DNA of 63,966 nt, the filler included, from Stramenopiles sp. TOSAG23-6 (lineage: Eukaryota): assembly GCA_900128565.1 (NCBI GenBank). It is 3 parts of 3 records of this genome, joined end to end, with 100 filler letters (N's around TTAATTAATTAA, not from the genome) between each part and the next. Parts side by side here need not be neighbours in the genome. Positions count along the whole stretch, not along the records: positions 21,828 to 43,541 come from LT636025.1; 2 more parts are not named here. One strand, given 5' to 3'. A program made the translations under genes and the position numbers. This document shows positions 1 through 54,900 of the stretch, piece by piece. Under the pieces are notes generated by a model. It made no database searches. It was not told where the DNA came from and worked only from the letters and a program-made list of their open reading frames with translations. The stretch's first letter is position 1. Every line of letters begins with the position of its first letter.

Positions 1-90
1 ATGTATTTTGGAAAAATATTTCAAAAAAAAAATCGTTAGGTACAAAATTTCGTACAAAAAAAATTAAATTTGAAAAAAAATAAAACATAC
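1..90 (-). mobile_element. Introner-like intron copy, GTATG...AAAATACAT (90 nt; 3' flank lies outside the window)
   Basis: The reverse complement matches the family consensus, including GTACGAAATTTTGTACCTAAC. It follows coding sequence cga gca tta t|. Confidence 0.85.
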
Positions 91-9963: not shown

Positions 9964-10428
9964 ATGGGACGTAAGGGCAAATCGCAAAAGCATACTGCAA
10001 AGGAAATAAATGCAAAACATCAAGCCGCTAAGAATGCAAGAGGAGCTGCTGGTGGTGGTGGTGCAGGTGCCGCTGCACGTAAAAATGCTGCTGCCAAGAT
10101 CCTAATGAGCTGCACTATTTGTAAAACTAACCAGCCTTCTGTAAAGTCAATGATGATTCACTATGACTCTAAGCATCCAAAAATATGTTTTGAAAGTGTA
10201 AGGGAGGGCTATGAAAAAATTAGTGGCTCAACCAGAGATGCAATTAATAGCAAGAAAAAAGCAAAAACTCACATGATTGGAGCTGTGAAAGCTCAAGCAA
10301 GTTCCAAGACTAAAAACAAAGAGTTGTCTGCCAGAGCCAAGAAAGCATTAGCGGAAAAACAAATGGCGTTTTTGGAGTCTACCCAAAAAAAGAAAGATAA
10401 ACGTGCAAGATCGAAAAAGAAGAAGTAA
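9964..10428 (+). CDS. Small basic C2H2 zinc-finger protein (ZNF706/At2g23090-like)
   Basis: CTIC...MMIHYDSKHPK; basic N-terminus with GGGGAG. Confidence 0.8.
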   Translation: MGRKGKSQKHTAKEINAKHQAAKNARGAAGGGGAGAAARKNAAAKILMSCTICKTNQPSVKSMMIHYDSKHPKICFESVREGYEKISGSTRDAINSKKKAKTHMIGAVKAQASSKTKNKELSARAKKALAEKQMAFLESTQKKKDKRARSKKKK

Positions 10429-10462
10429 TATTATAAAAGGATTTATAAAAAGATAAAACTCT

Positions 10463-11530
10463 TTAACCTTCAAAACTAGTGATTTCTGTTTCCTCAAAAA
10501 ATTGTTCATATGGTATCTTTAGTGTTTCATATGTCTTCATGTCTTCCATCAATAACATCTCTAATCCACAAGCCACTGGACCAGATAACCCATTTCCTAT
10601 TAAGGTACCATCTAACTCAGTAATTGGTCGAATCCAACCGCCACCAATATCCAGTAGTTCTCTACATTCTTTTATTTCTTCGATACTAAAGTCTCTTCTA
10701 ACAGTACTATTCAATGTAGAGTTACTAATTAAAGCAGGGGCTAAACTAAATGCACGAGCTGCTGTTGTACTCTCAAGTATATGACCGGGTCTTGGAACAC
10801 AGAGAACACCATCTTTATCTACCATTGCTATACAAGACACAGAAGACTCGTAAATTTGTTTTTTTGAATCTACTTGAATAGCAAGGTCAACATTTTTATC
10901 ATCTGCTTCCATTTGAATTAATGCATTAATCAGATAATTAGTCGTTTTGGTACTTGATAATAAAGGTGGTTTCAAGGGTAATGTTGTTGTACACGCTTTC
11001 AACCCAGTTGAACCAATCTCACACTGAGGTTTGTGACTATCATAGTCTTGATGAGCGACACAATAAAAATTTGCTTTTCCTCCCCGGCTCCGTAAACCTG
11101 ATGGAGAAATACTGAAATCACCACGCCCCACAGATAGCCAGTATCGGACATAGACTCCATTTTTGCGACCTGTGGCGGCAATTGTAGATAACACAATATT
11201 CTGCAAACGTTGTTTCGAAAATCTTAGTGGATGCTGATCGTCGCAGATTTTTGCAGCTTCCGCGCTTTTCAATAGTCTATCGAGGTGAAATTGAAGCCCA
11301 TAAGCATTTCCATCGACCACATTACAAGTATCAAAAACTGCATGACCCCGTGTAGTCATATGATCATCTATTGGGACAACGTATAGACTTGGATCAGTAG
11401 TTATTCCGTCGAGTTCACTAGAATACATTGCAAAACAGTCTTTTCTTACTGAAAGTGGAACACTTTTCTGAAGTGCTGACAAAGCTTCAGTTGGTTTTAA
11501 AAGACGGACAAATTTAGAAACAGTGGCCAT
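10463..11530 (-). CDS. Class IV PLP aminotransferase (plant-type D-amino acid transaminase / aminodeoxychorismate lyase-like)
   Basis: AMYSS..GITTDP..VPIDDH..RGHAVFDT, HLDRLL.SA, KTTNYL.NAL. Confidence 0.92.
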   Translation of the reverse strand: MATVSKFVRLLKPTEALSALQKSVPLSVRKDCFAMYSSELDGITTDPSLYVVPIDDHMTTRGHAVFDTCNVVDGNAYGLQFHLDRLLKSAEAAKICDDQHPLRFSKQRLQNIVLSTIAATGRKNGVYVRYWLSVGRGDFSISPSGLRSRGGKANFYCVAHQDYDSHKPQCEIGSTGLKACTTTLPLKPPLLSSTKTTNYLINALIQMEADDKNVDLAIQVDSKKQIYESSVSCIAMVDKDGVLCVPRPGHILESTTAARAFSLAPALISNSTLNSTVRRDFSIEEIKECRELLDIGGGWIRPITELDGTLIGNGLSGPVACGLEMLLMEDMKTYETLKIPYEQFFEETEITSFEG

Positions 11531-21727: not shown

Positions 21728-21771
21728 NNNNNNNNNNNNNNNNNNNNNNNNNNNNNNNNNNNNNNNNNNNN

Positions 21772-21783
21772 TTAATTAATTAA
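21772..21783. other. Artificial contig linker TTAATTAATTAA between N runs
   Basis: Six-frame stop linker, repeated identically at 43586. Confidence 0.95.
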
Positions 21784-21827
21784 NNNNNNNNNNNNNNNNN
21801 NNNNNNNNNNNNNNNNNNNNNNNNNNN

Positions 21828-21880
21828 TTGTACCTAACAAATTTTAGTTTTTTTTTTTGAAATATTTTTCCAAAATACAT
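21828..21880 (+). mobile_element. Introner 3' half at contig start (...AAAATACAT; AG also available at 21884)
   Basis: TTGTACCTAAC...TTGAAATATTTTTCCAAAATACAT. Confidence 0.85.
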
Positions 21881-24800
21881 ATAGATTAAGAGCGAAAACA
21901 AATGAAGACCAATGGAAAAAAGATGCAGCCAATGCACAAAAAGCAAGATTAGAGTTAAAACGAATGCGAGAAGAATCTAAAGCCAAATTACATCAGAAGC
22001 GTAAGAAGATTGCTGAAAAAGAAGAAAATCTTGCACGTATCAAAAATAAATTAGAAAGTTTTGAATCGAATCAAAAGGAAAAAGAAAAGTTAAAAGAAGA
22101 AGAAAAAAAAAGAAAGCAAGAACAGGAAAATAAAGACAGTGAACGTTTGCATGCTATGGCTATAAGAATTCAGTCTCCTATGCGAGGGAAAATAGCTCGA
22201 CGTAAGTCTGCAGAGGCTAGTGCCAAAAAGAATTTATTAGAGAAACATGATGCAGGATTATTGCGTATCGCATCTTTGCAGAATAAGCGAAATGAAGAAG
22301 AAAACAAAGCTCTTGAAGAAACACGCGGGAAAAAAAACTGGCAGAAATGTATACAAAAACACAAAAAAGTAAAGGAAGAAAATAAAAGAAAATATAAACT
22401 AATAGTAATGGTCCAGTCACACGTTCGCCAAATATTCGCCAAAAATATTGTTAAAGCTATGAGAAAAAAACGAAATGAAGAACAATTAATAAGCCAACAA
22501 ATGTTTGAAGAAGTGGCAGAAAGAAAACAAAAAGAATCGTATGAAAATAATATAGAGGAGGAAAGAAAGAAAAATAAATTATCATTTAAAATCGAACTTG
22601 CAAAAACAAAAATAAAGTTAAGGAAAATGGAAGATGATGTACAATTTCAAAATGAAAAGTTATCTACAGATGCAAGGTGGAAATGTAGTAAAGAGTCAAA
22701 TAGAAAACAAAAAAAACAAAACAATGAAGAAAGTGATCAACAATGTGAAATAATTAGACTTGAAAAAGAATTAGAAGATGTAATTAAATATTCCAAACAC
22801 AGAAAACAACGCTGGCAAAATGATGAAAAATTAAAAATTCACCTTGTCATTCAAATGCAGTCTCGTGTAAGAAGTTGTATTGCAAAAAGAAAAGTACGTA
22901 AAATGTTGCAAAATAAGTTACACAAAATAGAATTTAATGTATCAAAATATTGGGAAGAAGGTATTTGTCCAATTACAGGTAGGAAATATTGGTATAATTC
23001 AAAGACTGATGAAAGTACATATGAAAAACCTTCTTTTATTAATACTACAAAAAAAACAACTACAAGTGATCAAAACAAATTAGAAACAAAATATATTGAT
23101 ACACAATCTGTCGTTCAAAGTGACAGCCAGAAAGACTTGAAAACAAAATATTTTCATTCAAAATCTGAGAAATCTAAAAAGTCCATACGTAAAAACAATT
23201 ATACATCATACATGCCTCGGCAGTCACCTGAAATGAGTGGAAATGAAGAAGATGAGAGAAATATTGAGTACGAAAATGATTTCGAATCGGAAAATCATCG
23301 TGGTAAATTGAAAGCGGCGGCTGCGTTGATTGGCTCACATTCACGAATAGCTGCGTCTGCCATTCAAAGTGACAGCCAAAAAGACTTGAGTGGAAATGAA
23401 GAAGATGAGAGAAATATTGAGTACGAAAATGATTTCGAATCGGAAAATCATCGTGGTAAATTGAAAGCGGCGGCTGCGTTGATTGGCTCACATTCACGAA
23501 TAGCTGCGTCTGCCATTCAAAGTGACAGCCAAAAAGACTTGAGTGGAAATGAAGAAGATGAGAGAAATATTGAGTACGAAAATGATTTCGAATCGGAAAA
23601 TCATCGTGGTAAATTGAAAGCGGCGGCTGCGTTGATTGGCTCACATTCACGAATAGCTGCGTCTGCCATTCAAAGTGACAGCCAAAAAGACTTGAGTGGA
23701 AATGAAGAAGATGAGAGAAATATTGAGTACGAAAATGATTTCGAATCGGAAAATCATCGTGGTAAATTGAAAGCGGCGGCTGCGTTGATTGGCTCACATT
23801 CACGTTCACGGCAGTACAGTGATGAAAATTCACAAATAAAAATGCAACTAAAAGAATTTGAACAAAATCAAAATGAAGAAACTTTAAATGGTAGGATTAT
23901 AAAAGTATCAACTGTAGCTAGTTGTATACAAGAAGAAAAAGACAACTTCAATGTACAAGAAGAAAAAGAAGTTGAACATGTGCAAGAAGAAAAAGAAGCT
24001 GAAAATGTTCAACAAGAAAAAAGAGGTGCTGAAAATACAGAAGAGGCTTTATATAATCATATTGAGGTGGAAGGATCAGATGTATACAAAGATAAAGACC
24101 AGCTGAATGCCTTGCCAAAAAAAGCGAAAGTTGTGAAGGAGCGCAAATTTCATCGAAGTATATCAAGTTCATTGACACTCCCTATGATGAAACAAGAATT
24201 CGAAATAGATATAAATGAAGACGTTTGCGAAAATGAAAAAGTGAACACATCTTTGACCAATTCAATGAAACCAAAAGTTAAATCTACAGAGCCTTTACGA
24301 AAACCAAAAGTTAAATCTACAGAGCCTTTACGAAAACCAAAAGCTAAACCTACAGAGCCTTTACGAAAACCAAAAGCTAAACCTACAGAGCCTTTACGAA
24401 AGTCGAAAGCTAAACCTACAGAGCCTTTCCGAAAACCAAAAGTTACCAAAACGTCTTCAATGGAATCAGCAAGAGAAAGAATGAGAAGATATGCGCAATC
24501 AAAAGGAAAGGTCACAACAAAAGTGAAAAATGGACGTAAAAAACAGCAAAAGACGAAAGAACAAAGATCAACAAGGAATATGAAAATTGCATCCCGGGCG
24601 AAAGGTATTAAGAAAAGGTTGAAAAACGTTCATTCTGTTGTTGATTCTCATCAATCAGTGCATAGGGTTGATGCTACTAATCGTCAAAATCTGAATTATT
24701 TACAAAATGCAATCCCTTCGCGACACACAGAAGTTGTTTATACATTGAAGCATGCTCCAAAATCAAGATCACGACGGAGACGATCTTCACTTTCTCCGAA

Positions 24801-27800
24801 ATTAATAAAAAGAAAGCATTTTATTTTGGAATCACCTCATAGAAAAAGCAAAAAGAAGGTGACGTCATATTCTCCTACATCAAGAAGAGTAAAGAAACCT
24901 TTATTATCAGCAACAGAAGTAACAGAAACAAAAACAAGAAATGAAGAAACAACATCAACCGATTATACAACTACTATGGAATCTAGTGTTAGTACTGATG
25001 ATGTTGATTCAATGACAATACGTCTTACACAAAATCAACAAAAAAGCGAAATACTTAGTGGTGTAGTACACAGAGAATATATTGATAATGACGTAACAAA
25101 AATTGATCGATTTTTGAGATTTGCTGGAGAAAAACGAAAGAATAAATCTAAAATTGCTCCAGCAGAATCACCACAACAACGAAAAAGTGATTATCGATCC
25201 CGTGTAAGTGTTCAAGATAAACATGATCATTTCATTGATAGGTCAATCCAGAATGCTCGTAACAGAGTTCGCAGCAGAAGAAATATCATGAAAATTAAAA
25301 ATAAAAAGACAAAAGAAATATCAGAATCGGAAAATATAAATTATGCTGCAATACGTCGAGCTCAAAAAAGAGTTAATCGACATATTGCATTACAATCAAC
25401 TAGACAGATTGGTGCAGCTATTACAATTCAATCATTTGGGCGAATGATTATTGCTCAAAACATTAGTGAAGAATTAAGTACACATTTAAGTTCACCTGTA
25501 CATAAAAGTCTTGAATTTGTTTTAGTTGACTCCTTGGAAGGATATTCCAAAGATAACCATGATGATAGTATCGCCGAAACTGTTCTTACAAATGCAGTTG
25601 GAACAATTTTGAATGATGTATCACAGACTAGTAATGATGATAATTTATTATCGAGTAGTACCTCCGATACTGAAAGTACTTCTAATTCTGATGAAATCCA
25701 TCGCAAGTATGAGATTCTTGCAGTATCTACAGATGATTTTGATGAAGAAAATTTTCGATATGAAAATGCACTGAAAAAACGATTATTATACCGATGGAAA
25801 TATAAATGTGACATACGATGGCACAAAAGGAACAATGAGAAAATAGCTTTTGATCACTGGACATCTCACACAAAAATGAAAATTATTAAAGTATGGAAAG
25901 TCTATTCTGATTATTCTTTACAATTAAAATCTACAGCAGTCAAAATAGTGGGAAATAGAGGTATAAGAAAATGCCGTACTTTATTATCTCTTTGGAGGAA
26001 ACGTGCACGTATAAAATATGCCTTACATCGTTTATATTTAATACAAAACATTCGACACAGACAAAAAGTATTACTTCCAATCTTTACATTTTGGTCTCTA
26101 AAAGGCAAACGTTTAACTAGACTACGTCGAGCATGGAATACTCTAAGTGCGAGCATTGCGGGAAAATCGTGTACGTTTTATTTTTTTTCAAATTCGAATT
26201 TTTTTTCGTACACAATTTTGTACCTAACATTTTTTTTTTTTTTGAAATATTTTTCCAAAATACATACTGTCGTCGTCTTCGAGAAAAATGGGACTACAAA
26301 GCTATGAGAAAACGACGGAATTGTTCTTGGAATGAATTACAAATTGTAAATGATAATTTAAAGCGTTCAATGTTCCATGCATGGTTACAAGAGACATTGA
26401 ATTCATCGCGACGTAAGTGTAAGAAATATAAAGCTCAGGCATATTTACGAGATCAATTATTAGCTCGACACATACAAGAGTGGAAGCACATAACTAACTT
26501 ACATGTATGTTTTATTTTTCCTCAATTTTGAATTTATTTTTCGTAAGAAATTTTGTACCTAACAAATTTTAAGTTTTTTTTTTTGAAATATTTTCCAAAA
26601 TACATTCTATTGGTAGACTAGTTCGATTTAGATCTGTCCAGCGTTCTCGTTCTCAGCTTTTTCGTAAGTGGGAGTCAGCAGCTGAAATTCGCAAGGAACT
26701 TTTATATGATTTTCATAAGTACTGGCACNGGAAGCGACCGCTTCAAAGAGCTCTCATTGCTATGAAGACTGTTACAAAAGCAGAATTAAGATACCGTCAA
26801 AATTTTATGAGACAACATCTCTTAGCATGGAAACAAGTGACGAGATTAATTCTTGTCCATCGACTTCTCATGTACGTTTTCATTATGAATTTTATATTCA
26901 TTTAGTTTTTCATAGAAAATTTTGTACCTAAGGATTTTTTTTTAAACCAAAAGAATTAACCAAAAGAATTATATATATATATATATTCACAATATAGGCG
27001 GCCTATGACATGTTGGAGACGATGGGCTTGGCGACATCGACGGGTTTGGCATATAAAACGCCTCGAACACGCTGAAGCAGAAAGATCGCGTATATCATCA
27101 CCAAAACATATAAAAAAACCAATCAGAAGTAAAATTTTGAGTGTATCGGATCCTTGTCAACGTATATGGAAATCATACATGATGGATAACCTTATGCCTA
27201 AACAAAATAGTAACCTCGAAAATGATTCTAATCATGATGCGATACTAGAAAATGATTCTTATCATGATGCGATACTAGATTCTGAAAGTCAAGATTCTGA
27301 ATCAGTGTATAGAACAAGTGTTGTTGCGTCTGTAATTAAAGATGATGTAGAATCTAATAATTATGATGAATCTTCTCAACAAAAGAATGAAAATATTTCT
27401 AATCCTGAACAAAAGAATGAAAATATTTCTAATCCTGAAAATTATCCACATGTAGAGTATGTATGTTTTATTTTTTTTTTTACAAAAAAATCGAATTTAT
27501 TTTTTTTCATAGGAAATTTTGTACCTAACATTTTTTTTAGATTTTTTTGAAATATTTTTCCACAATACATGTTACTTTAAAACGATTGAGATTAGCAAAG
27601 TTAATTAGCAATCCTACACGAAATCGAACAGATCTTGCAGAAAGAACTGCAAAACAACGAAGAAATATTATACAAAATAATGAATTAAACCAAACTGAAA
27701 ATGTGAAAGAAAATGAAAAAGGTACAAAAATTACATACAAAAGATTGCTACAATGTAGACTTGTATCATCTTCCTCCTCGTCGGATGATGTACATGTGAA

Positions 27801-28111
27801 GAATAAAGCAGTTGTAAATATTCATAAAAATGAAGAAAGACGAAAGCGAAGAATTGTAGAGTGGTGTTTCCTTACTTGGGCTTTGAACTGTCATAGTATT
27901 ATCAGACCAGCAAGTCAATCAAATATGAGTACGTTTTCAGAATGAATTTTTTTTTTTTTTTTTTTCAAACATTCAGTATTCTCAAAAAAAAAAAATCTAC
28001 AATATTTTCCACAATGCATTGAAGCTTCGTTTGACAAAAGTTCCATCAGCAATGGTACGTTGGAGTCTGGGTATAGAACATTTGGATAATTTGAACATAT
28101 TGAATGAGTAA
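21881..28111 (+). CDS. Large IQ-motif/WW/Sfi1-like-repeat protein (5' partial); exons 21881-26170, 26266-26504, 26606-26871, 26998-27460, 27571-27928, ~28020-28111
   Basis: IQ-like motifs (IQSPMRG, VQSHVR, MQSRVR, IQSFGR), a WW domain (WEEG..GRKYWYNSKTDESTYEKP) and Trp-periodic basic repeats. The frames join through introners; the last exon is uncertain. Confidence 0.75.
23234..23804 (+). repeat. 153-bp coding tandem repeat x3.7 (51 aa)
   Basis: Identical units SGNEEDERNIEYENDF...AAAALIGSHSR. Confidence 0.95.
24268..24444 (+). repeat. 33-bp coding tandem repeat x5 (KPKxKxTEPLR)
   Basis: Seen directly in DNA and protein. Confidence 0.93.
26171..26265 (+). mobile_element. Introner, GT...AT, 95 nt
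   Basis: tcg t|ac tgt cgt is in frame; the first downstream AG creates TAA. Confidence 0.88.
26505..26605 (+). mobile_element. Introner, GT...AT, 101 nt
   Basis: cat|tct att ggt opens an 88-codon exon; the nearest AGs are out of frame. Confidence 0.88.
26872..26997 (+). other. Degenerate introner-derived intron with canonical GT-AG ends, 126 nt
   Basis: at|GTACGT...AAATTTTGTACCTAAG...CAATATAG|g cgg. Confidence 0.85.
27461..27570 (+). mobile_element. Introner, GT...AT, 110 nt (an internal in-frame AG at 27540 is an alternative acceptor)
   Basis: tat|gtt act tta is in frame; matches the family consensus. Confidence 0.8.
27929..28019 (+). other. Degenerate introner-like intron (ends ...ACAATGCAT, or at the AG 5 nt further)
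   Basis: GTACGTTTT start and AATATTTTCCACAATGCAT end; both acceptors give short open terminal exons. Confidence 0.55.
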
Positions 28112-35146: not shown

Positions 35147-37340
35147 TTAAACCTTTTGTTTGCAAATTGTTGCTAATGTACATACTTTACCTGCTTCAAA
35201 ATTTGATTTTGAAAATAAAACTTTTTCTGGAGCTTCAACATCCATCTTTTCTGTATTTCCATCCCAACGCTTCATTAACCAATGGAATATTGGACCATCA
35301 AATATCTCCCAAATGTATGGGGTATCGATATAACCTAAACTAAGTAGTTCTGATACTTGTAGAAATAAATTTCGAGCAATTAAATCTTGTGCCTTTATCA
35401 AAATATTTTGACGAAAGAAACCTTCAGAATATTTTTTTTTTGTACTACATTTTGTACCTAATGATTTTTTTTTTAGCTCTTCAACTTCTCGTTTCCAAAT
35501 ATCTTTAAATGTCTCTCGCATCAAACCTTGGGCTAATAATGCTCGTATTTGAGTAGATGATGGCTGATGACAACTGGGTAGTGACCATATTATTGAAACG
35601 ACTTGGCATATAAAGTTTCGATGATTTTTAAAAGGTATCTCCGATATATCTACATTTTCCATAATTTTGGTACAATTGTTTTTAGGTATAGGTATTAATT
35701 GTAACCAATTTTTCTTTGAAGTAAACGGACAACAAAAAATTTCTGATATGTAACTACTGGATAAGTTTAATCGAGAATAGCAACGGTTTCGAAAATTCGA
35801 TAATATACAATGGTAAGGTTGGGATTGCGGAGTATTTAGTGTACATTTTTTGTAAAAAAATATTCAGAAATTTGAAATTCGTCAGGTATAATAATAATCT
35901 AAATCTTGAGTAAAAAAAAAAATTAAATTTGAATTTTCATGATTAGGGTTAGGGTNATTAGGGTTAGGGTGAAACAAACATTCGATAGCAACACCTCTCC
36001 GGAATACAGGAGTTTCATTAAATGGGTATATCAAATCTACTAAAACAGGTTGAGGAAGTATTGTAGAGGAGATACCTTGATAATCTTCAAAATCTTTTAA
36101 TAGACTATAAAATTGAACTACATTTTCATATTTTCTACGAATATATTTCAAAAAAAAAAAAAAAAATTGTTAGGTACAAAATTCCGTACGAAGAAAAAAA
36201 TGAAATTTGAAAAAAAATAAATACGTATTTTCTACGAATATATTGTAGAGTCATCATCATATTACGATGACTTCTACGTGATTTTCGATTGTGTTTCTTA
36301 TTTTTAGTACACATTTTGGTACTTATCGACTTCCTTGGGTGACATTCTGCTTTGCTTTTTTTTGTACAATTATTTTCATGCCTCTCTATACTATTACTTT
36401 CATCACTTTGAGTAGTAGAAGTTGTAGTAGGGTTAGGGTTTTGAGTATCAGTTCTAAATACCTCAGATAAAAAAGTAGCTACAGCTGGTACGTGACATTT
36501 CATACCTACAAATCTAGAAATAGAATTAAGCACAGAAATATCTCGAGGGAGAACATCACAGCCTAATATACCGGCAAGATAAGGAAGTTGTTCAAGGGTA
36601 AGATTAAGAGCAGATAAAACTTTACATTGATTATATGTTTTGCACTCAATGGAAAAAAAATTCAGGTTTGTGCTATTTTTTGTATTTTTTGTATTTTTTG
36701 TATTTTTTGTATTTTTTGTATTTTTCTTTATGATAGTCTCATCATTTTGATTTATCTTTACAGTGCTAAAATCAATCATAAGTGCATCACCTGTATCAAA
36801 TATTAGAAAGTCACTGTCTGTAGCTAAAACACCGAAAGCTTGACTTTGTTTTGCAAATGTAGCTACGTACACATCTGCTTCACCTCGAGTGTACTGAACA
36901 CTAGCACCAGCAGCTTCCCAAGCTGACGCTAACCACAAACGATATGACGTACCTGGAATATATAAATGCTTTGGGATACTGTGTTCGTACCCCTGGTTCT
37001 TCTCATGATAAATAAGCCATTTGTTTAAGGCTTTTAATCGAATAACTTCTTTGTTTCTTCGCTTCAACCATTCTCTATTCTTGGACGAGCAAGTGCTTCC
37101 ATCAATGAATACAACTAGGTCGAACCCACAAAGTCTAAATGCTTCTACAAAATTAAAAACTTCTTCCCGCAGTCGAGTGAAGTCAAGAACGATGCCACAC
37201 ATATCCCGTAGGAAATATGAAACACCAGCTAGACCATCAACAATAATTTTCTTGGTTTCTTTTTTCTCGCTTTGAGGAGTGAACCTTACACTTGAATGAC
37301 AATGCTTTTTAGACCAGGCAGATAACCCTTGCACACCCAT
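35147..37340 (-). CDS. Asteroid/XPG-like PIN-domain protein; exons 37340-36225, 36127-35980, 35844-35147
   Basis: MGVQGL, IIVDG, VVFIDG, GEAD, VLATDSDFLIF, AGILGCD. Three ORF pieces are joined in frame by two GT...AT introns. Confidence 0.82.
35845..35979 (-). other. Degenerate GT...AT intron, 135 nt, containing telomeric repeats
   Basis: gaa t|GTTTG...TACCTGAC...AAAAAAT|gt aca. The first AG is 88 nt downstream and out of frame. Confidence 0.75.
36128..36224 (-). mobile_element. Introner, GT...AT, 97 nt, with a 19-bp exon duplication at its 3' end
   Basis: tac|GTATTT...GTACCTAAC...AAAATAT|gaa. The internal AG leads to a stop. Confidence 0.8.
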
Positions 37341-37909: not shown

Positions 37910-40900
37910 TACTCTACATGTGGATAATTTTCAGGATTAGAAATATTTTCATTCTTTTGTTCAGGATTAGAAATATTTTCATTCTTTTGTTGAGAAGATT
38001 CATCATAATTATTAGATTCTACATCATCTTTAATTACAGACGCAACAACACTTGTTCTATACACTGATTCAGAATCTTGACTTTCAGAATCTAGTATCGC
38101 ATCATGATAAGAATCATTTTCTAGTATCGCATCATGATTAGAATCATTTTCGAGGTTACTATTTTGTTTAGGCATAAGGTTATCCATCATGTATGATTTC
38201 CATATACGTTGACAAGGATCCGATACACTCAAAATTTTACTTCTGATTGGTTTTTTTATATGTTTTGGTGATGATATACGCGATCTTTCTGCTTCAGCGT
38301 GTTCGAGGCGTTTTATATGCCAAACCCGTCGATGTCGCCAAGCCCATCGTCTCCAACATGTCATAGGCCGCCTATATTGTGAATATATATATATATATAA
38401 TTCTTTTGGTTAATTCTTTTGGTTTAAAAAAAAATCCTTAGGTACAAAATTTTCTATGAAAAACTAAATGAATATAAAATTCATAATGAAAACGTACATG
38501 AGAAGTCGATGGACAAGAATTAATCTCGTCACTTGTTTCCATGCTAAGAGATGTTGTCTCATAAAATTTTGACGGTATCTTAATTCTGCTTTTGTAACAG
38601 TCTTCATAGCAATGAGAGCTCTTTGAAGCGGTCGCTTCCNGTGCCAGTACTTATGAAAATCATATAAAAGTTCCTTGCGAATTTCAGCTGCTGACTCCCA
38701 CTTACGAAAAAGCTGAGAACGAGAACGCTGGACAGATCTAAATCGAACTAGTCTACCAATAGAATGTATTTTGGAAAATATTTCAAAAAAAAAAACTTAA
38801 AATTTGTTAGGTACAAAATTTCTTACGAAAAATAAATTCAAAATTGAGGAAAAATAAAACATACATGTAAGTTAGTTATGTGCTTCCACTCTTGTATGTG
38901 TCGAGCTAATAATTGATCTCGTAAATATGCCTGAGCTTTATATTTCTTACACTTACGTCGCGATGAATTCAATGTCTCTTGTAACCATGCATGGAACATT
39001 GAACGCTTTAAATTATCATTTACAATTTGTAATTCATTCCAAGAACAATTCCGTCGTTTTCTCATAGCTTTGTAGTCCCATTTTTCTCGAAGACGACGAC
39101 AGTATGTATTTTGGAAAAATATTTCAAAAAAAAAAAAAATGTTAGGTACAAAATTGTGTACGAAAAAAAATTCGAATTTGAAAAAAAATAAAACGTACAC
39201 GATTTTCCCGCAATGCTCGCACTTAGAGTATTCCATGCTCGACGTAGTCTAGTTAAACGTTTGCCTTTTAGAGACCAAAATGTAAAGATTGGAAGTAATA
39301 CTTTTTGTCTGTGTCGAATGTTTTGTATTAAATATAAACGATGTAAGGCATATTTTATACGTGCACGTTTCCTCCAAAGAGATAATAAAGTACGGCATTT
39401 TCTTATACCTCTATTTCCCACTATTTTGACTGCTGTAGATTTTAATTGTAAAGAATAATCAGAATAGACTTTCCATACTTTAATAATTTTCATTTTTGTG
39501 TGAGATGTCCAGTGATCAAAAGCTATTTTCTCATTGTTCCTTTTGTGCCATCGTATGTCACATTTATATTTCCATCGGTATAATAATCGTTTTTTCAGTG
39601 CATTTTCATATCGAAAATTTTCTTCATCAAAATCATCTGTAGATACTGCAAGAATCTCATACTTGCGATGGATTTCATCAGAATTAGAAGTACTTTCAGT
39701 ATCGGAGGTACTACTCGATAATAAATTATCATCATTACTAGTCTGTGATACATCATTCAAAATTGTTCCAACTGCATTTGTAAGAACAGTTTCGGCGATA
39801 CTATCATCATGGTTATCTTTGGAATATCCTTCCAAGGAGTCAACTAAAACAAATTCAAGACTTTTATGTACAGGTGAACTTAAATGTGTACTTAATTCTT
39901 CACTAATGTTTTGAGCAATAATCATTCGCCCAAATGATTGAATTGTAATAGCTGCACCAATCTGTCTAGTTGATTGTAATGCAATATGTCGATTAACTCT
40001 TTTTTGAGCTCGACGTATTGCAGCATAATTTATATTTTCCGATTCTGATATTTCTTTTGTCTTTTTATTTTTAATTTTCATGATATTTCTTCTGCTGCGA
40101 ACTCTGTTACGAGCATTCTGGATTGACCTATCAATGAAATGATCATGTTTATCTTGAACACTTACACGGGATCGATAATCACTTTTTCGTTGTTGTGGTG
40201 ATTCTGCTGGAGCAATTTTAGATTTATTCTTTCGTTTTTCTCCAGCAAATCTCAAAAATCGATCAATTTTTGTTACGTCATTATCAATATATTCTCTGTG
40301 TACTACACCACTAAGTATTTCGCTTTTTTGTTGATTTTGTGTAAGACGTATTGTCATTGAATCAACATCATCAGTACTAACACTAGATTCCATAGTAGTT
40401 GTATAATCGGTTGATGTTGTTTCTTCATTTCTTGTTTTTGTTTCTGTTACTTCTGTTGCTGATAATAAAGGTTTCTTTACTCTTCTTGATGTAGGAGAAT
40501 ATGACGTCACCTTCTTTTTGCTTTTTCTATGAGGTGATTCCAAAATAAAATGCTTTCTTTTTATTAATTTCGGAGAAAGTGAAGATCGTCTCCGTCGTGA
40601 TCTTGATTTTGGAGCATGCTTCAATGTATAAACAACTTCTGTGTGTCGCGAAGGGATTGCATTTTGTAAATAATTCAGATTTTGACGATTAGTAGCATCA
40701 ACCCTATGCACTGATTGATGAGAATCAACAACAGAATGAACGTTTTTCAACCTTTTCTTAATACCTTTCGCCCGGGATGCAATTTTCATATTCCTTGTTG
40801 ATCTTTGTTCTTTCGTCTTTTGCTGTTTTTTACGTCCATTTTTCACTTTTGTTGTGACCTTTCCTTTTGATTGCGCATATCTTCTCATTCTTTCTCTTGC

Positions 40901-43541
40901 TGATTCCATTGAAGACGTTTTGGTAACTTTTGGTTTTCGGAAAGGCTCTGTAGGTTTAGCTTTCGACTTTCGTAAAGGCTCTGTAGGTTTAGCTTTTGGT
41001 TTTCGTAAAGGCTCTGTAGGTTTAGCTTTTGGTTTTCGTAAAGGCTCTGTAGATTTAACTTTTGGTTTTCGTAAAGGCTCTGTAGATTTAACTTTTGGTT
41101 TCATTGAATTGGTCAAAGATGTGTTCACTTTTTCATTTTCGCAAACGTCTTCATTTATATCTATTTCGAATTCTTGTTTCATCATAGGGAGTGTCAATGA
41201 ACTTGATATACTTCGATGAAATTTGCGCTCCTTCACAACTTTCGCTTTTTTTGGCAAGGCATTCAGCTGGTCTTTATCTTTGTATACATCTGATCCTTCC
41301 ACCTCAATATGATTATATAAAGCCTCTTCTGTATTTTCAGCACCTCTTTTTTCTTGTTGAACATTTTCAGCTTCTTTTTCTTCTTGCACATGTTCAACTT
41401 CTTTTTCTTCTTGTACATTGAAGTTGTCTTTTTCTTCTTGTATACAACTAGCTACAGTTGATACTTTTATAATCCTACCATTTAAAGTTTCTTCATTTTG
41501 ATTTTGTTCAAATTCTTTTAGTTGCATTTTTATTTGTGAATTTTCATCACTGTACTGCCGTGAACGTGAATGTGAGCCAATCAACGCAGCCGCCGCTTTC
41601 AATTTACCACGATGATTTTCCGATTCGAAATCATTTTCGTACTCAATATTTCTCTCATCTTCTTCATTTCCACTCAAGTCTTTTTGGCTGTCACTTTGAA
41701 TGGCAGACGCAGCTATTCGTGAATGTGAGCCAATCAACGCAGCCGCCGCTTTCAATTTACCACGATGATTTTCCGATTCGAAATCATTTTCGTACTCAAT
41801 ATTTCTCTCATCTTCTTCATTTCCACTCAAGTCTTTTTGGCTGTCACTTTGAATGGCAGACGCAGCTATTCGTGAATGTGAGCCAATCAACGCAGCCGCC
41901 GCTTTCAATTTACCACGATGATTTTCCGATTCGAAATCATTTTCGTACTCAATATTTCTCTCATCTTCTTCATTTCCACTCAAGTCTTTTTGGCTGTCAC
42001 TTTGAATGGCAGACGCAGCTATTCGTGAATGTGAGCCAATCAACGCAGCCGCCGCTTTCAATTTACCACGATGATTTTCCGATTCGAAATCATTTTCGTA
42101 CTCAATATTTCTCTCATCTTCTTCATTTCCACTCATTTCAGGTGACTGCCGAGGCATGTATGATGTATAATTGTTTTTACGTATGGACTTTTTAGATTTC
42201 TCAGATTTTGAATGAAAATATTTTGTTTTCAAGTCTTTCTGGCTGTCACTTTGAACGACAGATTGTGTATCAATATATTTTGTTTCTAATTTGTTTTGAT
42301 CACTTGTAGTTGTTTTTTTTGTAGTATTAATAAAAGAAGGTTTTTCATATGTACTTTCATCAGTCTTTGAATTATACCAATATTTCCTACCTGTAATTGG
42401 ACAAATACCTTCTTCCCAATATTTTGATACATTAAATTCTATTTTGTGTAACTTATTTTGCAACATTTTACGTACTTTTCTTTTTGCAATACAACTTCTT
42501 ACACGAGACTGCATTTGAATGACAAGGTGAATTTTTAATTTTTCATCATTTTGCCAGCGTTGTTTTCTGTGTTTGGAATATTTAATTACATCTTCTAATT
42601 CTTTTTCAAGTCTAATTATTTCACATTGTTGATCACTTTCTTCATTGTTTTGTTTTTTTTGTTTTCTATTTGACTCTTTACTACATTTCCACCTTGCATC
42701 TGTAGATAACTTTTCATTTTGAAATTGTACATCATCTTCCATTTTCCTTAACTTTATTTTTGTTTTTGCAAGTTCGATTTTAAATGATAATTTATTTTTC
42801 TTTCTTTCCTCCTCTATATTATTTTCATACGATTCTTTTTGTTTTCTTTCTGCCACTTCTTCAAACATTTGTTGGCTTATTAATTGTTCTTCATTTCGTT
42901 TTTTTCTCATAGCTTTAACAATATTTTTGGCGAATATTTGGCGAACGTGTGACTGGACCATTACTATTAGTTTATATTTTCTTTTATTTTCTTCCTTTAC
43001 TTTTTTGTGTTTTTGTATACATTTCTGCCAGTTTTTTTTCCCGCGTGTTTCTTCAAGAGCTTTGTTTTCTTCTTCATTTCGCTTATTCTGCAAAGATGCG
43101 ATACGCAATAATCCTGCATCATGTTTCTCTAATAAATTCTTTTTGGCACTAGCCTCTGCAGACTTACGTCGAGCTATTTTCCCTCGCATAGGAGACTGAA
43201 TTCTTATAGCCATAGCATGCAAACGTTCACTGTCTTTATTTTCCTGTTCTTGCTTTCTTTTTTTTTCTTCTTCTTTTAACTTTTCTTTTTCCTTTTGATT
43301 CGATTCAAAACTTTCTAATTTATTTTTGATACGTGCAAGATTTTCTTCTTTTTCAGCAATCTTCTTACGCTTCTGATGTAATTTGGCTTTAGATTCTTCT
43401 CGCATTCGTTTTAACTCTAATCTTGCTTTTTGTGCATTGGCTGCATCTTTTTTCCATTGGTCTTCATTTGTTTTCGCTCTTAATCTATATGTATTTTGGA
43501 AAAATATTTCAAAAAAAAAAACTAAAATTTGTTAGGTACAA
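37910..43541 (-). repeat. Right arm of the inverted duplication (partial copy of the IQ/WW gene; mirror introns 38372-38497, 38764-38864, 39104-39198, 43489-43541)
   Basis: Exact reverse complement of 21828-27459. Confidence 0.97.
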
Positions 43542-43585
43542 NNNNNNNNNNNNNNNNNNNNNNNNNNNNNNNNNNNNNNNNNNNN

Positions 43586-43597
43586 TTAATTAATTAA
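43586..43597. other. Artificial contig linker
   Basis: TTAATTAATTAA within N runs. Confidence 0.95.
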
Positions 43598-43641
43598 NNN
43601 NNNNNNNNNNNNNNNNNNNNNNNNNNNNNNNNNNNNNNNNN

Positions 43642-43704
43642 TTTTTTTTCGTACGAAATTTTGTACCTAACGATTTTTTTTTGAAATATTTTTTCATCAT
43701 ACAT
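43642..43704 (+). mobile_element. Introner 3' part at contig start (...CATACAT)
   Basis: CGTACGAAATTTTGTACCTAACG...; followed directly by codons for VLGVTTVAGN. Confidence 0.85.
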
Positions 43705-44734: not shown

Positions 44735-47298
44735 TTACCATCCAAGAGCACTACTAGTTTCTTTGCCTCGTGGTGCGTGAGGATCATTGTGATCAGAACT
44801 TCCACAAGATTTGATCGCGTGAACAAGGGTGTCCTCCACAAGATTAACATCAAATGATTCTGAACGCCTTATACGCTCGGAAGAGATACCAGGTGTGGTA
44901 CTACTCACTAAGTGTTCATGAGGATGAACCAGTTGCTCAAATGCATCAACTTGGATTATGTCCTCTCTTAACTTTTCGGCCACGTCGAGTTTTGCCTGTT
45001 CTTCAATAGTGGCGTCACGCTTTTCTTTACGCAATTTCGATAAAATTTTATCTCCTTCAATACATTTTGAAAATGCTTCATTGATTTGACTTACTCTATC
45101 TAAGGGATTCTCTGAAATAAACACACTTTCAGACAATAATTTTCGAATTTCAGATTCAGTAGTAATTAATTGAGAAGTAGCACGAACTAATCCATCACTT
45201 GGTACAGAATATGCACGACCTAATGGAAATGAAATACCTCGCATCAAGAACCCTATGGGACGTACGGGGAAATTATCAAAAATGCCGTAAAATGCATCTT
45301 CTATATCATGTGTTATTTGGGTCAAAGCATGATCAATAATAGTATTCGTTTGTTGTACATTATTTTTCTTAGCAAACCATAAGACAGAATATCCTAAATA
45401 TAGATTAGATAATATATCAGCATATCGACCGGACAGTTGTTCTGCGGTTTTTAATCGACCACCTAATATAAGTCCTAAATCCGTTGTTACTGCAAACGCA
45501 GCAGATAGGCGATTTAGTTGAGATTCGTGAAATCTTGAAATGTCTGATTTAGATCTTGTACGAGTTATAGCTTGGCTAAACGCTCTGAAAGCATTAGTAG
45601 TGCCATGTCCTAATAAACTTCTTACATGTTTTGAAAATCCTTTTTTATCATCTCCCTTTGAGATTGAAGCAATTAGATCTTGCATATGAGGATGCGCACG
45701 GTTTAGCCCTTGACCAAACACAATTAATGATCGGGTAAGAATATGTAATCGAAGAGAAATATTTCATTTGTTTTTTTGTTAGGTACAACATTTACTACGA
45801 AAATAAAATTGAGATTTTTTTTTGGAAACGGACATTTGCGCCTTCGACAGTAATTGCGACTGGCATTGATTGATATTTTGAAGCCATATAATTCATAGGT
45901 CCTTTACAAATTCCTGCACCGCCTATGACGTCCATAGCATCATTCCCTACAGTTCTACCCATCTCCGTACATTTTAACTTCATTATCGCGGATAAAACTG
46001 GAGGTCTTTCATGTTGACCCACAGCAGCATTAAATAGATGTTGCGATGCAGTGCATGTGTATGCTAGAGATGCGATTCTTGCTAACCTTTCTTGGATGCC
46101 TTCCATCTCCGCAATGGGAACCTTGAACTGCTTTCTGATTCTAGCATATCCTCCAACAGCATTGACGCATGTATTTTGAAAAAATATTTCAAAAAAAACG
46201 TTAGGTACAAACTTTCGTACGAAAAACAATCGAAATTGAAAAAAAATAAAACATACACAATTGAGCTATACCACCTGCTGATGCAGGTAAAGATATTCCC
46301 CTACCTTCCCCTAGGCATTCCATAAGCATATTCCAACCAAACCCAGTGCGTTCTTGACCACCAACAACGTTTGTTAATGGTATAAACACATCACGTCCAC
46401 GGACAGGTCCGTTCATGAAACCGGCATCGATGGGGTTATGCCGCGCTCCAGTTAAAAGTCCCTTGTGTCCTTTATCTAACAAGCAAACGGTAATGCCTTC
46501 ACTTCCAACGCCCTTTAAGAGTCCATTTGGGTCCTTGACATCAATTGCAAGACCTATTAGAGTAGCTACAGGGGCGAGTGTTATATAACGTTTATTAAAA
46601 GTAGCTTTTACACCTAAAACGCCATTCTGCTCACAAACAATACCAACATCGCGCATAGAAGCAGCGTCAGAACCTGAAGATGGCCCGGTGAGTGCAAAAC
46701 ATGGAATGTCAACTCCAGTAGCTAACCGAGGTAAATAATGTTTCTTTTGTGAATCAGTGCCGTATTCTCGTAATAGCTCAGCTGGGCCCAAAGAATTAGG
46801 AACCATGACAGTAACAGCGGCGCATATTGAACGCGTAGCAACTCGCTGTAACATAACTGAATGAGCATGCGCAGAGAATCCTTTACCACCGTAATCTTTG
46901 GAGATACACAAGCCAAGGAAGCCTTTCTCCCTAATATAACTCCAAACCTCTGGTTTCAAATTTTGGTCCAAACTTACTTGATAATCATCAATCATTTCGC
47001 ACAGAGTATTAACTTCGACGTCAAAGAAAGATTGTTCTTCGGTAGTAAATCCAACATCATATTTGTCCACAAGTTTTTGTAACGATGGTGATCCGGAAAA
47101 TATATCCCGATCAAACCCTACAGTCCCAGAATCCAGAGCTGCTTGTTCCGTTGCAGATATCTTTGGCATAATTCGTTTGGCAAAATTATACAACGGTCCC
47201 ACCACAAAAGTTCGGCGGGTGTTAAATATGGGACTAATTGAAGAATGAAACTGGAGTATCCTCCGAGATTTGCCTATACGTATGCTTCGGCCCAACAT
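44735..47298 (-). CDS. FadE-type acyl-CoA dehydrogenase; exons 47298-46257, 46168-45834, 45742-44735
   Basis: MPKISATEQAAL, MVPNSLGPAELL, KRYITLAP, GRGISLP, YARIRKQF, ITVEGAN|ILTRSLIVFGQG, LGGRLK..EQLSGR.AD. Confidence 0.95.
45743..45833 (-). mobile_element. Introner-derived intron, GT...AT, 91 nt
   Basis: Removal restores ITVEGAN|ILTRSL exactly; there is no AG after the branch point. Confidence 0.93.
46169..46256 (-). mobile_element. Introner, GT...AT, 88 nt
   Basis: ttg t|gc gtc is in frame; the first downstream AG creates TGA. Confidence 0.93.
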
Positions 47299-51900: not shown

Positions 51901-54900
51901 ATTATGACTGTGCAAATAGTTGCTACAATTGCTGCATAAAAAAGACCTCCGGAGGATTGCCCGCCTGGGCAAAATGTGCACCGCATACCATCGCTGGTGC
52001 GAACATAGTTCTTATCACATAATCCACATATAGGACCCTTGTAACCTTTTGTACAATTAGACCAATTCGTGTGTTCTTCGGTAATAACCCCATTACCGTC
52101 ATCATGTAGCTCACTTGGACACATTCCAATATATGCCCAATAGTTTCCAGCATTTTCACAGCTTTCCTTGTCGGTGACATCAGCAATGACTTCTTCACAA
52201 GTAGTTATTGCATCTAGAGATGCTCCTATCTCAGGTCTACAAGTTTGACACTCAAACTCATCCAATAAACAAGGCAAAGGATCTAAATCTTGAGGATTAT
52301 CAATAAAAAAATCGCGATCTTGCCAGAAGCCAGCTTTTATACTTAATTTTGCAGAGTCCAGGTTTGTATTGTAAGCCAGGCCGTCTGTCATACATACCAT
52401 CTGTAATTATAAAATATCAAAGTAAAAACTATGTTAGATAACTAAATGGGGTAATTTTAAAATATAATAGTGAAAGTAATGAAAAGCTATCAAATCAATA
52501 TAATATCTACTACGTACACTATCAGCACATCTTGTACAAGAAATTGCATCAGAGTCATGATTAGATAATGTATCAAGCTTAATACGTGTCGGGATACTGA
52601 TGTTGTAGTGTGTGGCAAAATAAGCAGCATTTTTTTTGAATTGATTTTTCTCTATTAATTTTTTGGAATCCTCTATCATTTGTTCCAAATCTGCAAGATG
52701 GCCAAAATAACCTCGTGGACACTGACAACGCTTTCTGTCTAAATCACCCTCTGCTTCTATTCCGGGACAATCGCCCTCATATTTTGTTCCTTCTGGGCAA
52801 AATTTTTTCTCAGCACATTCCATCTTCACTGAAGAAGTTTGGCAAAAATAGCCCTCGGGGCACAGCCCAGTTTCAGTCGATCCAGCTTCACAGTACCCTC
52901 CTTTAACCGAATCACCACACATTTTTATTGTAGATGATTGAGTGCAGAAACTTCCTGCAGGACACAAAGTTGGAATTATCGTTCCCAGAGGACAATAAAA
53001 CTGTCTGCCATTATGAATGCCACCCTTAGCAGGACCAGCTCGTACGGCATCTGAAAGATCATACTCATAATCAGACCAAACACCTTTCATACCATTTTGG
53101 TTATTCTCGCATAACGCTTTTGTGTCCCGCTTTTCATACCAAATGCCATCAGGCTCACAATTAGCTGCAGTTTTCTCTGTGAGTACTCTATCCTCCAACA
53201 TAAGATTTTTACTTATACATGTATCTGTGCTCACATTGATATTTCCAATCATACAACCCGCATAGGGGTAATCACAAGAAAATTTAAACTTGCCCTCTTC
53301 ACAGTAAAACCCGACTGGACATTCTATAGGAAGCATCGTTTTCTCTGGACAAAACCAACCCGTATCAGCATCGCGAAGGAAAACATCAATAGCAAGGGGG
53401 TTGTATACACAAGATTTTTTTACAGAGGAAGTTGTGCAATAAAACCCAAGAGGGCATGGACTTCTTGCAAAACTACCTCTGGCACAAAATTCAGCATTTC
53501 CTTCATCTGATGTACATAAAGTCTGAACTTTTGAATCGGGGCAAAATGATCCTAACGCACACTGGTTTCCTCTATCAGAGCCTTCTGGGCAGTAATAAGC
53601 TGTGGTACCATCGGTATTAAGTGGACTAGTTGGATCGGCAGGATTATCAAGAGTACTATCATCACAAGAGTATTTGTATCTACCTTCCTCGCAATAATAC
53701 CCTTCGGGACATAGTACTGGACCCTTACTGTTTCCAGGACAATACCAAGCTTTTGTATCTTCTGCATTATTTTGCAATACATTGTCAGGATGCTCAGGAT
53801 CATACACACAACTCTTCTTGATATTAGAAGTCGGACAGTAATAACCTGGTGGGCACTGCGTAGGTGCAGATGAACCTTCTTCGCAGTATGTGCCATCATC
53901 AGGACATTTCACTTCTGTTTTCGATGTCTCGCATTTATACCCAGCTCTACATTTTGAGGGTGCCATCGATCCAGCAGCACAATAAAACGCAATATTTTGG
54001 ACAATGATTGAGTTAGGATCTTTAACTGGGTCATTTGCAGAGTTATCACATGAATACTTGAATTTTCCTGAACTACAATAAAATCCTACTTCACATTGTA
54101 TCGGAGTGGTATTTCTACCTGGACAATACCAAGCTATAGTGTCATTTTGAAGTAATATATCCGGCTCATTCTCATTCCACTCACAACTCATTTTTGAAGC
54201 TGGAGAAGGACAGTAATATCCTTGGGGGCAATCTTGTGCAGATGATGAGCCAAGAGGGCAGTGGTCTCCATTGCTACAAGCGATTTCTTCTCGCGAATTT
54301 GGGCATCTATACCCAGGTTTGCATCTCTCTGATCCATGACTACCTGTAGGACAATAAAACGAGTCATACACCTGCCAAGAACCTGAGAATAACTTTATAT
54401 TGGGTGGCGTACTGCATAAGCCCGCATCTATTAGATCAACAGAATCAATTGCTCCCTTGTTATCGACTGTATAATCTGCGAGAGGAAGTTTAGAACATTC
54501 TCCGCCTGAAAATTCTATCTGCCCAGGTATATATCCTGTGCCTTTTGAAGGAAGAGTGACTTCAACCCCTATTGGATTCAGCTTAAATACAAGCTTCGCA
54601 TTATTTCCACTGTTATCATCAGCTATACTTGCCGATGGGGGTACGGTACACTTCACTGTTCCTGGATTGTCTAAGACAATGGGTGAAATGATTGCGCCTT
54701 CAGCTGTAACTGTCAATGATGCGACTGGATATACTGTGCATGTCCCCCCAGTAAACACAACCGGTGCAACAGTATAACCAGTACCACATGTTTTTTGGAA
54801 AAATATTTAAAAAAATAATCGTTAGGTACAAAATTTCGTACGAAAAAAAAATCGAATTTGAAAAAGAATAAAACATACAATCTGTACACGAAAGTTCACC

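Follow-up and report, generated by a model that had tools for sequence, protein, structure and literature searches.

We analysed a stretch of 63,966 nucleotides (hereafter the window) from Stramenopiles sp. TOSAG23-6 (GenBank assembly GCA_900128565.1), in which members of a family of short, closely related introns, apparently running from GT to AT, interrupt unrelated protein-coding genes. The window consists of three separately assembled scaffolds that were concatenated, so that genes on either side of a spacer need not be genomic neighbours; the N-runs at 21728-21827 and 43542-43641 enclose the 12-mer TTAATTAATTAA, a six-frame stop spacer. With 30-44% G+C, the window is gene-dense, follows the standard code and carries long open reading frames (ORFs) on both strands. 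These encode an ordinary eukaryotic set of proteins, among them Dim1 rRNA dimethylase, RNase H2, CDC20, Mob1, frataxin, a B9 ciliary protein, an XPG-like nuclease, a nucleoside hydrolase and an acyl-CoA dehydrogenase of the FadE type. The named protein nearest to the Dim1 ORF is 98% identical to it and bears a EukProt label suggestive of a MAST-3 marine stramenopile assembly, this label being the sole basis of our assignment of the lineage (a MAST-3-like stramenopile). The host is a compact, AT-rich, uncultured marine eukaryote. Within one scaffold, 21828-27459 recurs inverted at 37910-43541 (5632 nt, 100% identity by self-BLAST), of which one end (21828/43541) falls inside a family copy and the other (27459/37910) a single base ahead of a copy; this duplicate appears to be an artefact and not biology, arising from chimeric amplification or from a fold-back of the assembly at the repeat. 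Once it is subtracted, about 58 kb of unique sequence are left, in agreement with a first-pass annotation that had been made from the sequence of the window.

That annotation had listed 13 starts of related elements in unrelated genes. Related elements are present at all 13, with the one at 27929 being marginal, and a further, truncated copy at 35423-35499 had been overlooked (Table 1, where copies are listed by the coordinates that we use to name them). A profile was built from seven copies and searched with nhmmer on the window, as that annotation had proposed for the whole genome: it gave 26 matches at E<=10 and 16 at E<=1e-3, the latter being the seven seeds, four matches in the assembly duplicate and five non-seed copies (21827-21880, 26903-26943, 35431-35473, 43642-43703 and 45777-45816). 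Core copies have nhmmer E-values from 1e-14 to 1e-20, and the seven of them share 72-93% pairwise identity over their whole length of about 90 nt, while identity to these core copies is 62-72% for copy 26872 and 55-58% for copy 45743; lengths range from about 88 to 135 nt across the family. The shared signals are the element's own GT 5' site, a branch-site-like box TTTTGTACCTAAC, a T-run and a conserved 3' end ...AAAATACAT. Allowing at most one mismatch, the 13-mer TTTTGTACCTAAC occurs 14 times against 0.06 expected (11 non-redundant occurrences), and none of 100 shuffles reaches 14.

Table 1. Members of the intron family in the window, and the assembly duplicate that repeats some of them. Phases and ends are as predicted from the reading frame; a slash marks a junction.
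Coordinates	Strand	State	Ends and phase	Upstream dinucleotide	Context	nhmmer E
1..90	-	full core	3' ACAT at the window's first base	AT	interrupts ORF 2-1087 (-)	4.8e-17
21828..21880	+	partial, 3' 53 nt			cut by scaffold spacer	6.7e-07
26171..26265	+	full core	GTACGT...ACAT, phase 1	GT		2.7e-20
26505..26605	+	full core	GTATGT...ACAT, phase 0	upstream exon ends ACAT		4.4e-17
26872..26997	+	diverged, internal insertion and (AT)n run	ends AG, phase 2			8.8e-05
27461..27570	+	full core	phase 0	AT	inverted duplication breaks one base before	1.2e-14
27929..28019	+	marginal, only ends family-like	GTACGTTTT..., ...TTTTCCACAATGCAT, phase 1			
35423..35499	+	truncated, consensus positions 16-87	both termini missing			7.7e-4
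35845..35979	-		GAAT/GTTTGT...AAAAAAT/GT, phase 1 both sides			1.3
36128..36223	-	core	GTATTT...ATAT, phase 0		XPG-like gene (Pfam XPG in upstream ORF)	4.6e-15
37910..43541	-	duplicate			repeats four copies (38372-38497, 38764-38864, 39104-39198, 43489-43541); not independent	
43642..43704	+	partial, 3' 63 nt	ends ACAT		scaffold start	3.9e-11
45743..45833	-	diverged	GTCCGT...ACAT, phase 0	AT	acyl-CoA dehydrogenase	
46169..46256	-	core	GTATGT...ACAT, phase 1	GT	acyl-CoA dehydrogenase	2.6e-18
54788..54878	-	core	phase 1	TT	Cys-rich giant protein	2e-19

Diverged copies were aligned locally to the family consensus and scored against 300 shuffles each. None of the shuffles equalled the truncated copy at 35423-35499 (score 76 against 35.1+-5.3), copy 35845 (62 against 30.7+-5.4) or copy 45743 (53 against 23.4+-4.4). 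Copy 27929 does not carry the branch-like box, is equalled by 11 of 300 shuffles and has no nhmmer match at E<=10. Altogether, 12 non-redundant copies have statistical support in about 58 kb, copy 27929 standing apart as marginal, and they lie in at least 6 genes whose identities, partly from Pfam, bear out that the hosts are unrelated: the acyl-CoA dehydrogenase, the nucleoside hydrolase, the XPG-like nuclease, a large WW-domain protein and a giant Cys-rich protein. Two ordinary introns of the window, at 4531-4626 (in the RNase H2 gene) and 52401-52517, both predicted to run from GT to AG with a CTAAY box, were used as controls: neither gave a match to the family profile at E<=10 with nhmmer, and 25 and 41 of 300 shuffles, respectively, align to the consensus equally well. 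Since these controls fail to match, the likeness within the family is not general intron composition, an objection that the first-pass annotation had raised against its own reading and that the 72-93% identity over the full length of the core copies also contradicts.

The interior of the consensus contains two 12-nt palindromes, around TTCGAA and around CGTACG (e.g. 26189-26200 and 26209-26216), which are imperfect in several copies and could be protein-binding sites or small hairpins. The spacing of the five clustered copies (334, 367, 589 and 468 nt) shows no clear, nucleosome-like period. A candidate intron at 7095-7193 was dropped, as it shares only about 10 nt with the family at each end, is equalled by 159 of 300 shuffles and is followed by a frame that is not open.

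Three polyA metatranscriptome runs and one seawater DNA run (X3) were compared with positions 43642-63641 only. Two assembled RNA contigs cross family copies there: a contig of 409 nt with 0 mismatches (X6 record 11) matches 46061-46167 and then 46256-46557, so that 46168-46255 (88 nt) are skipped, and a contig of 371 nt (X7 record 17) matches 45542-45742 and then 45834-46003, so that 45743-45833 are skipped. Both elements of the acyl-CoA dehydrogenase gene are therefore removed exactly from the mRNA. When the exons of this gene are joined from GT to AT, they form a frame of 804 codons with no stop, which is gapless at both junctions (...EGAN/ILTR... at 45743) in 7 of 7 full-length homologues, these having been chosen from 37 matches. 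These two copies are thus removed exactly between GT and the last AT, with restoration of a conserved protein frame, as the first-pass annotation had claimed when it proposed scarless splicing at a downstream AT. In the rest of 43642-63641, RNA cover is absent or consists of element-only contigs.

The RNA junctions also limit the registers in which the two introns can be written. At 46169, only TG..CA, GT..AT and TA..TG fit the RNA, and at 45743 only AT..AC, TG..CA and GT..AT, which leaves GT..AT and TG..CA as registers common to both. We infer that GT..AT is the one in use, since 11 of 11 full copies start with GT and 8 of these 11 with GTAYGT.

Reading frames predict in-frame GT...AT joins for six more copies (26171, 26505, 27461, 35845, 36128 and 54788). 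At 26171, 1444 codons upstream would be joined to 87 downstream, and copy 21828 ends in ACAT immediately before this 1444-codon exon. At 54788, an ORF of 2087 codons would be joined to one of 790 codons, and X3 DNA contigs enter this copy from both sides. At 35845, the frame of ORF 35882-36169 would pass into that of ORF 35147-35863. In copy 26505, an AG lies 8 nt past the branch-like box, and its use would lead to a stop after 15 codons. Copy 43642 occupies the 5' part of the gene for the nucleoside hydrolase, where Pfam IU_nuc_hydro begins at profile position 24 just downstream. Among the 13 copies that have a 3' end, 12 end in AT, the exception being copy 26872, which ends in AG. The AG at 26997 is the sole in-frame end at the position homologous to the family AT: over 26986-26997, this copy ends in ...CACAATATAG where its relatives have ...CACAATACAT, the last base G giving a canonical AG. 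This difference suggests that copies can drift between AT and AG ends, in either direction.

Beyond the window, the family is high-copy. In the X3 seawater DNA, 5,481 contigs match the 20-kb stretch 43642-63641 at a likeness of at least 90%, and mean depth rises from about 10 in the flanks to 5,624-10,627 in the three element-bearing bins (about 500-1000x). Since this summed depth includes other organisms, it is not a copy number and serves only as evidence for very many similar copies. Long single-copy X3 contigs all stop inside the four elements of this stretch; since contigs enter or stop inside the elements, each of the four sites holds its element in the sampled population, whose exons diverge from those of the window by about 1%. 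Many long-range 'joints' in X3 connect different element copies; a reading of them as deletions was rejected, and they are taken as cross-matches from other loci. As would be expected of a high-copy repeat, copies are found at the scaffold ends (21828, 43541 and 43642) and at the point where the inverted duplication breaks (27459).

The 13 copies of the first-pass annotation are in sense orientation by reading frame, and for two of them also by RNA, which agrees with its statement that copies are always sense; the truncated copy that it had missed is antisense, and so the statement holds for 13 of the 14. The window thus gives 13 sense copies against one antisense (p = 9e-4 against 0.5) and none that is intergenic. 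Selection against unspliced insertions in a gene-dense genome would yield the same sense bias and, as the window is gene-dense, could hide antisense or intergenic copies; their rarity may reflect either the loss of unspliced insertions or a bias in insertion itself. The antisense copy at 35423-35499 lies within the minus-strand ORF 35147-35863 (238 codons) and is read through in frame. There it contributes about 26 Lys-rich codons, perhaps as an exonised insertion. Relative to the plus-strand frataxin ORF, this copy is in sense orientation and sits 330-410 nt downstream.

The first-pass annotation had also described the family as resembling miniature inverted-repeat transposable elements (MITEs), with terminal inverted repeats (TIRs) and an apparent duplication of an AT target. 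Short inverted ends are indeed found: the outer four bases are complementary (GTAT/ATAC), 8 of 9 bases pair with one bulge, and TTTCAAA/TTTGAAA follow further in in some copies. The arms found measure 7-11 nt and differ from copy to copy, and no long terminal inverted repeat was found in the copies of the window; in MITEs, terminal inverted repeats are usually 10 bp or more. The inverted repeat is genuine though short, with no sign of a maintained stable hairpin. As for the target, AT precedes GT in 6 of the 11 full copies (1, 26505, 26872, 27461, 35845 and 45743) against 10.5% elsewhere in the window (p = 3.8e-4), and T stands at -1 in 9 of 11 (p = 3.7e-3). The claim that AT is usual before GT is therefore borne out as an enrichment, with five exceptions; four of these sit at third codon positions, as had been stated, with three of the four being synonymous with AT, and copy 27929 (...G A/) is different. 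Since the 3' AT is constant in the family, a duplicated AT, an insertion into A^T and a target preference give the same sequence. Accounts in which GTAT...ATAC duplicates an AT, in which TGTAT...ATACA enters a single A^T, or in which (A)T is merely a preferred target would thus fit equally well, and the AT duplication, though compatible with the upstream enrichment, cannot be told from the other two. The same ambiguity of duplication was stated for AG by Gozashti et al. (bioRxiv 10.1101/2022.06.06.494994).

Two copies have unusual ends. In copy 36128, an exact 19-nt direct repeat (36128-36146 = 36225-36243, minus strand) has one unit in the upstream exon (the exon's last 19 nt but one) and the other at the 3' end of the intron, where it replaces, yet resembles, the usual 3' end of the family. 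A duplication fixed at 2 bp would not account for this repeat, which may have come from homology-assisted insertion or from later local conversion. In copy 35845, two telomere-like blocks resembling (CCCTAA)2, with N between them (35940-35972, minus strand), replace the usual T-rich 5' stretch, and may be an interstitial telomeric insert or the join of two contig ends.

Repeated similar introns and their exact removal from mRNA support the introner interpretation of the first-pass annotation, and we consider it quite probable that these elements, leaving the AT duplication aside, are short mobile introns (introners) of a high-copy family whose 3' splice site is non-canonical; that the family looks mobile, and is not a product of general intron composition, is supported. 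In this explanation, the major spliceosome would recognise the element's own 5' site, its CTAAC-type box and its T-run and would carry out a normal first step, while the second step would accept ...CAT/ instead of ...YAG/ about 31-45 nt past the branch box. AGs that lie 8-10 nt past the box would be passed over in copy 26505, and perhaps in copy 27461, and the next exonic AG would not be used, as is the case for the two copies with RNA support. The elements would spread as DNA, into targets in which (A)T precedes the point of insertion; since their ends are GTAT...ATAC (or equally TGTAT...ATACA) at (A)T sites, the only scar-free 3' splice site would lie after AT. The antisense copy, the palindromic ends, the AT bias and the 19-nt repeat all lean towards spread at the DNA level, with none of them being decisive. 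A bolder version, in which an (A)T-targeting DNA transposon seeded thousands of genes in a marine stramenopile lineage and the major spliceosome of that lineage takes AT as a regular 3' end next to a textbook GT and branch site, is in our judgement doubtful. If it were true, non-AG splicing would have arisen independently of tunicates, syndinians and euglenozoans, and relaxation of the second-step site would be separated from relaxation of the first-step site.

Several observations weigh against the mobile-intron explanation or parts of it. RNA evidence covers 2 of the 11 full copies, and since it consists of assembled contigs, minor isoforms are hidden; other in-frame ends are available in copy 26171 (an ATAT 15 nt upstream) and in copy 27461 (an AG 30 nt upstream); and it is from motifs only that cutting would be ascribed to the spliceosome rather than to another activity. 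The inverted ends are short (4-9 nt) and lie in A/T-rich sequence, substitutions in copies 26171, 54788, 45743 and 36128 break end pairs with no compensation, and RNA folds of seven copies are no stabler than those of shuffles (z from -1.17 to +0.71). Of the 11 full copies, 5 lack the upstream AT, among them 3 of the 6 that are best conserved. No transposase or integrase family was found in the 30 ORFs that were scanned among the window's 94 ORFs of at least 90 aa, so that the autonomous partner for which the first-pass annotation had proposed a search did not appear there. No empty site was seen, and no intron-less DNA joint was present among the X3 joints listed for four sites in one run. 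Finally, in the metagenome and viral collections as searched, no copy was found outside the source organism: a gapped element pattern had 0 matches in metagenomes, a 17-mer had at least 118 loci there, the 118 listed being chance matches to the 17-mer alone with 0 real copies among them (none above 17.6 bits, against 50-68 bits for full copies of the window) and 19 loci with 0 real copies in viral contigs, and a 22-mer of the 3' end had 0 matches in viral contigs.

Some of these points would suit other origins for the elements. If excised introns reverse-spliced into transcripts and then returned to the genome by reverse transcription and recombination, no transposase and no target duplication would be needed, and fungal introners without TIRs or target-site duplications (TSDs) have been interpreted in this way (bioRxiv 10.1101/2022.06.06.494994). 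The lack of a transposase in the 30 ORFs scanned, the weak inversion of the ends and the 3' bias of five copies within the last 1.9 kb of one 6.3-kb gene would all fit such RNA-level spread, and so would the sense orientation of 13 of 14 copies, all of them genic, but selection in a gene-dense genome also predicts that bias, and the antisense copy at 35423-35499 cannot come from reverse splicing into the same transcript. Since the AT enrichment and the palindromic GTAT/ATAC ends would have no role in it, and since the 19-nt direct repeat at 36128 points to DNA-level repair or insertion, we regard this origin as unlikely. Less credible still is that nothing mobile is involved and that the copies only share splicing signals and an A/T-rich intron composition: GTAYGT, CTAAC boxes and T-runs are indeed generic intron signals, but identity extends over the whole 90 nt or so, including the two internal 12-nt palindromes, the window's two ordinary introns do not match, and the 5,481 X3 contigs, the hundreds-fold depth peak at the elements and the assembly breaks inside copies would all be left unexplained, so that we give this explanation almost no weight.

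Other alternatives concern how the elements are excised. A 3' end other than AG, the complementarity between the first four bases and the last-but-two four, and minimum free energy folds that pair the ends in 3 of 7 copies would suit an excision without the spliceosome, in which end pairing sets the cut sites as proposed for euglenid nonconventional introns, comparable claims having been made for Amoebophrya (PMC7789003) and for euglenids (PMC11282704). This is nonetheless very improbable: all copies have GT and 8 of 11 GTAYGT, the CTAAC-type box and T-run are common to the window's ordinary GT-AG introns, fold z-scores stay within -1.2 to +0.7, the substitutions that break end pairs are uncompensated, and the AG that copy 26872 has in the homologous place is what reading of this site by the spliceosome would predict. 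One may also write the introns as AT-AC, a known compatible pair of ends (PMC11282704), with the upstream AT as true start and ...ATAC as true end, as in introns of a minor-spliceosome-like type; in the six copies preceded by AT, this register gives the same mRNA. It is hardly conceivable for the family, since the RNA contig at 46169 keeps a G at 46258 where an AT-AC-type register would need an A, and since inspection by eye shows neither the conserved 5' box nor the conserved branch box of minor-type introns. The branch-like box moreover lies 31-45 nt from the 3' end, and this distance is shorter in minor introns. The mobile introner read by the major spliceosome remains our preferred explanation for the GT-AT family. 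Rfam has 0 matches in the window, so that no snRNA gene was seen there.

Other features of the host genes were also seen. The large gene with five copies contains perfect coding tandem repeats at 23234-23804, 24268-24442, 27218-27279 and 27378-27439, namely 153 nt x 3.7 (100% identity), 33 nt x 5.3 and two 30-nt pairs. A public coding sequence that matches the Dim1 ORF at 98% is without 8 residues that correspond to a 24-nt GT...AG stretch at 2950-2973 (minus strand), which is open and in frame in the window and may be a very short annotated intron or an annotation artefact. The acyl-CoA dehydrogenase locus (44735-47328) encodes a C-terminal domain of 'bacterial type' (ACDH_C), and its best full-length relatives, which are 41-54% identical over the C-terminal third (the part that served as query), include proteins named from eukaryotic algae and protists (Diacronema, Hanusia, MMETSP transcripts); the gene is a eukaryotic lineage of its family rather than contamination.

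The family is a further example of intron gain through a repeated element that is coupled with non-canonical splicing, one in which only the 3' dinucleotide departs (GT-AT), and so offers a clean natural test of site choice in the second catalytic step. Its host group consists of abundant, uncultured marine grazers, and since public metatranscriptomes already show spliced products, genome-wide tests are feasible without culture. There are also practical consequences, as assemblies break or fold back at copies and gene finders that insist on GT-AG would break the host genes. In a collection of 5.8 billion proteins, no near-identical acyl-CoA dehydrogenase of at least 588 residues was found (best 54% identity); between 184 and 587 residues, the same collection holds one near-identical protein, a single-exon ORF of 328 residues from a contig of 1,619 nt, and a public gene model of this enzyme from the same assembly was found in neither length range.

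In the literature, we found no report of GT-AT introners or of MAST-3 introners, although an unnamed listing in the species or family tables of introner surveys is possible, such surveys having included marine metagenome-derived genomes (bioRxiv 10.1101/2022.06.06.494994). In the accessible text of two papers on uncultured stramenopile genomes, the word 'intron' appears twice, in a methodological sense (PMC5778133), or has 0 mentions (PMC12614181), with no unusual introns described. Among known systems, U12-type AT-AC introns resemble the family in being spliced with ends other than GT-AG, and copies preceded by AT can be written AT...AC (PMC11282704), but the RNA junction at 46169 contradicts that register for this copy, and the minor-type boxes are not seen by eye. 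The family also resembles the nonconventional and 'intermediate' introns of euglenids and diplonemids, which have non-AG ends, complementary ends, TSD-like junction repeats and a proposed MITE origin, and of which the intermediate type likewise keeps a conventional 5' end (PMC12621601, PMC11282704). In those introns, the borders vary, a polypyrimidine tract is missing and the ends pair stably, and excision, in the form of circles, follows conventional splicing (PMC12621601, PMC11282704), whereas the family has a T-run, a branch box and weak pairing in a host whose nearest proteins are not euglenozoan. The GT of 11 of 11 full copies, the GTAYGT of 8 of 11, the T-run and the fold z-scores (-1.2 to +0.7) do not fit an intron of the euglenid nonconventional type.

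Amoebophrya (Syndiniales) is also a marine protist with repeated non-canonical introns and inverted end repeats, and its introns have short direct repeats across exon/intron boundaries, most of its introner elements being without a transposase that was found (PMC7789003). As described there, Amoebophrya introns show no dominant terminal dinucleotides, inverted repeats of 8-20 nt and direct repeats of 3-5 nt, in a genome apparently without U1, while the introns described here form a single family in which the GT...AT ends are fixed and the 5' and branch signals look normal. In the tunicate Fritillaria borealis, non-canonical splice sites are likewise the ends of non-autonomous transposons: AG-AC and AG-AT prevail, many 3' ends are AC or AT and tied to the target, and the host spliceosome removes these introns efficiently (PMC11282704, bioRxiv 10.1101/2025.08.15.670264). 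The family described here differs from this animal case in its protist host and in its textbook 5' end, GT(A/Y)GT, only the 3' end departing from the canonical form.

The introners of Micromonas pusilla and Aureococcus anophagefferens, which are non-autonomous DNA transposons turned introns (PMC11282704, PMC7789003), have canonical GT-AG ends, and the Aureococcus elements have direct repeats and TIRs of constant length, whereas here the 3' splice site is AT, the inverted ends measure 4-9 nt and a duplication is not demonstrable. In both cases, short, high-copy and near-identical introns lie in unrelated genes of a marine protist, Aureococcus being also a stramenopile. As in these two algae, some splicing signals would come from the element and the others from the insertion site, with a splice site at the boundary between element and target and a scar-free removal, so that the parallel which the first-pass annotation had drawn to introners that recruit a splice site from their insertion site is supported by the accounts of these systems (bioRxiv 10.1101/2022.06.06.494994, PMC11282704).

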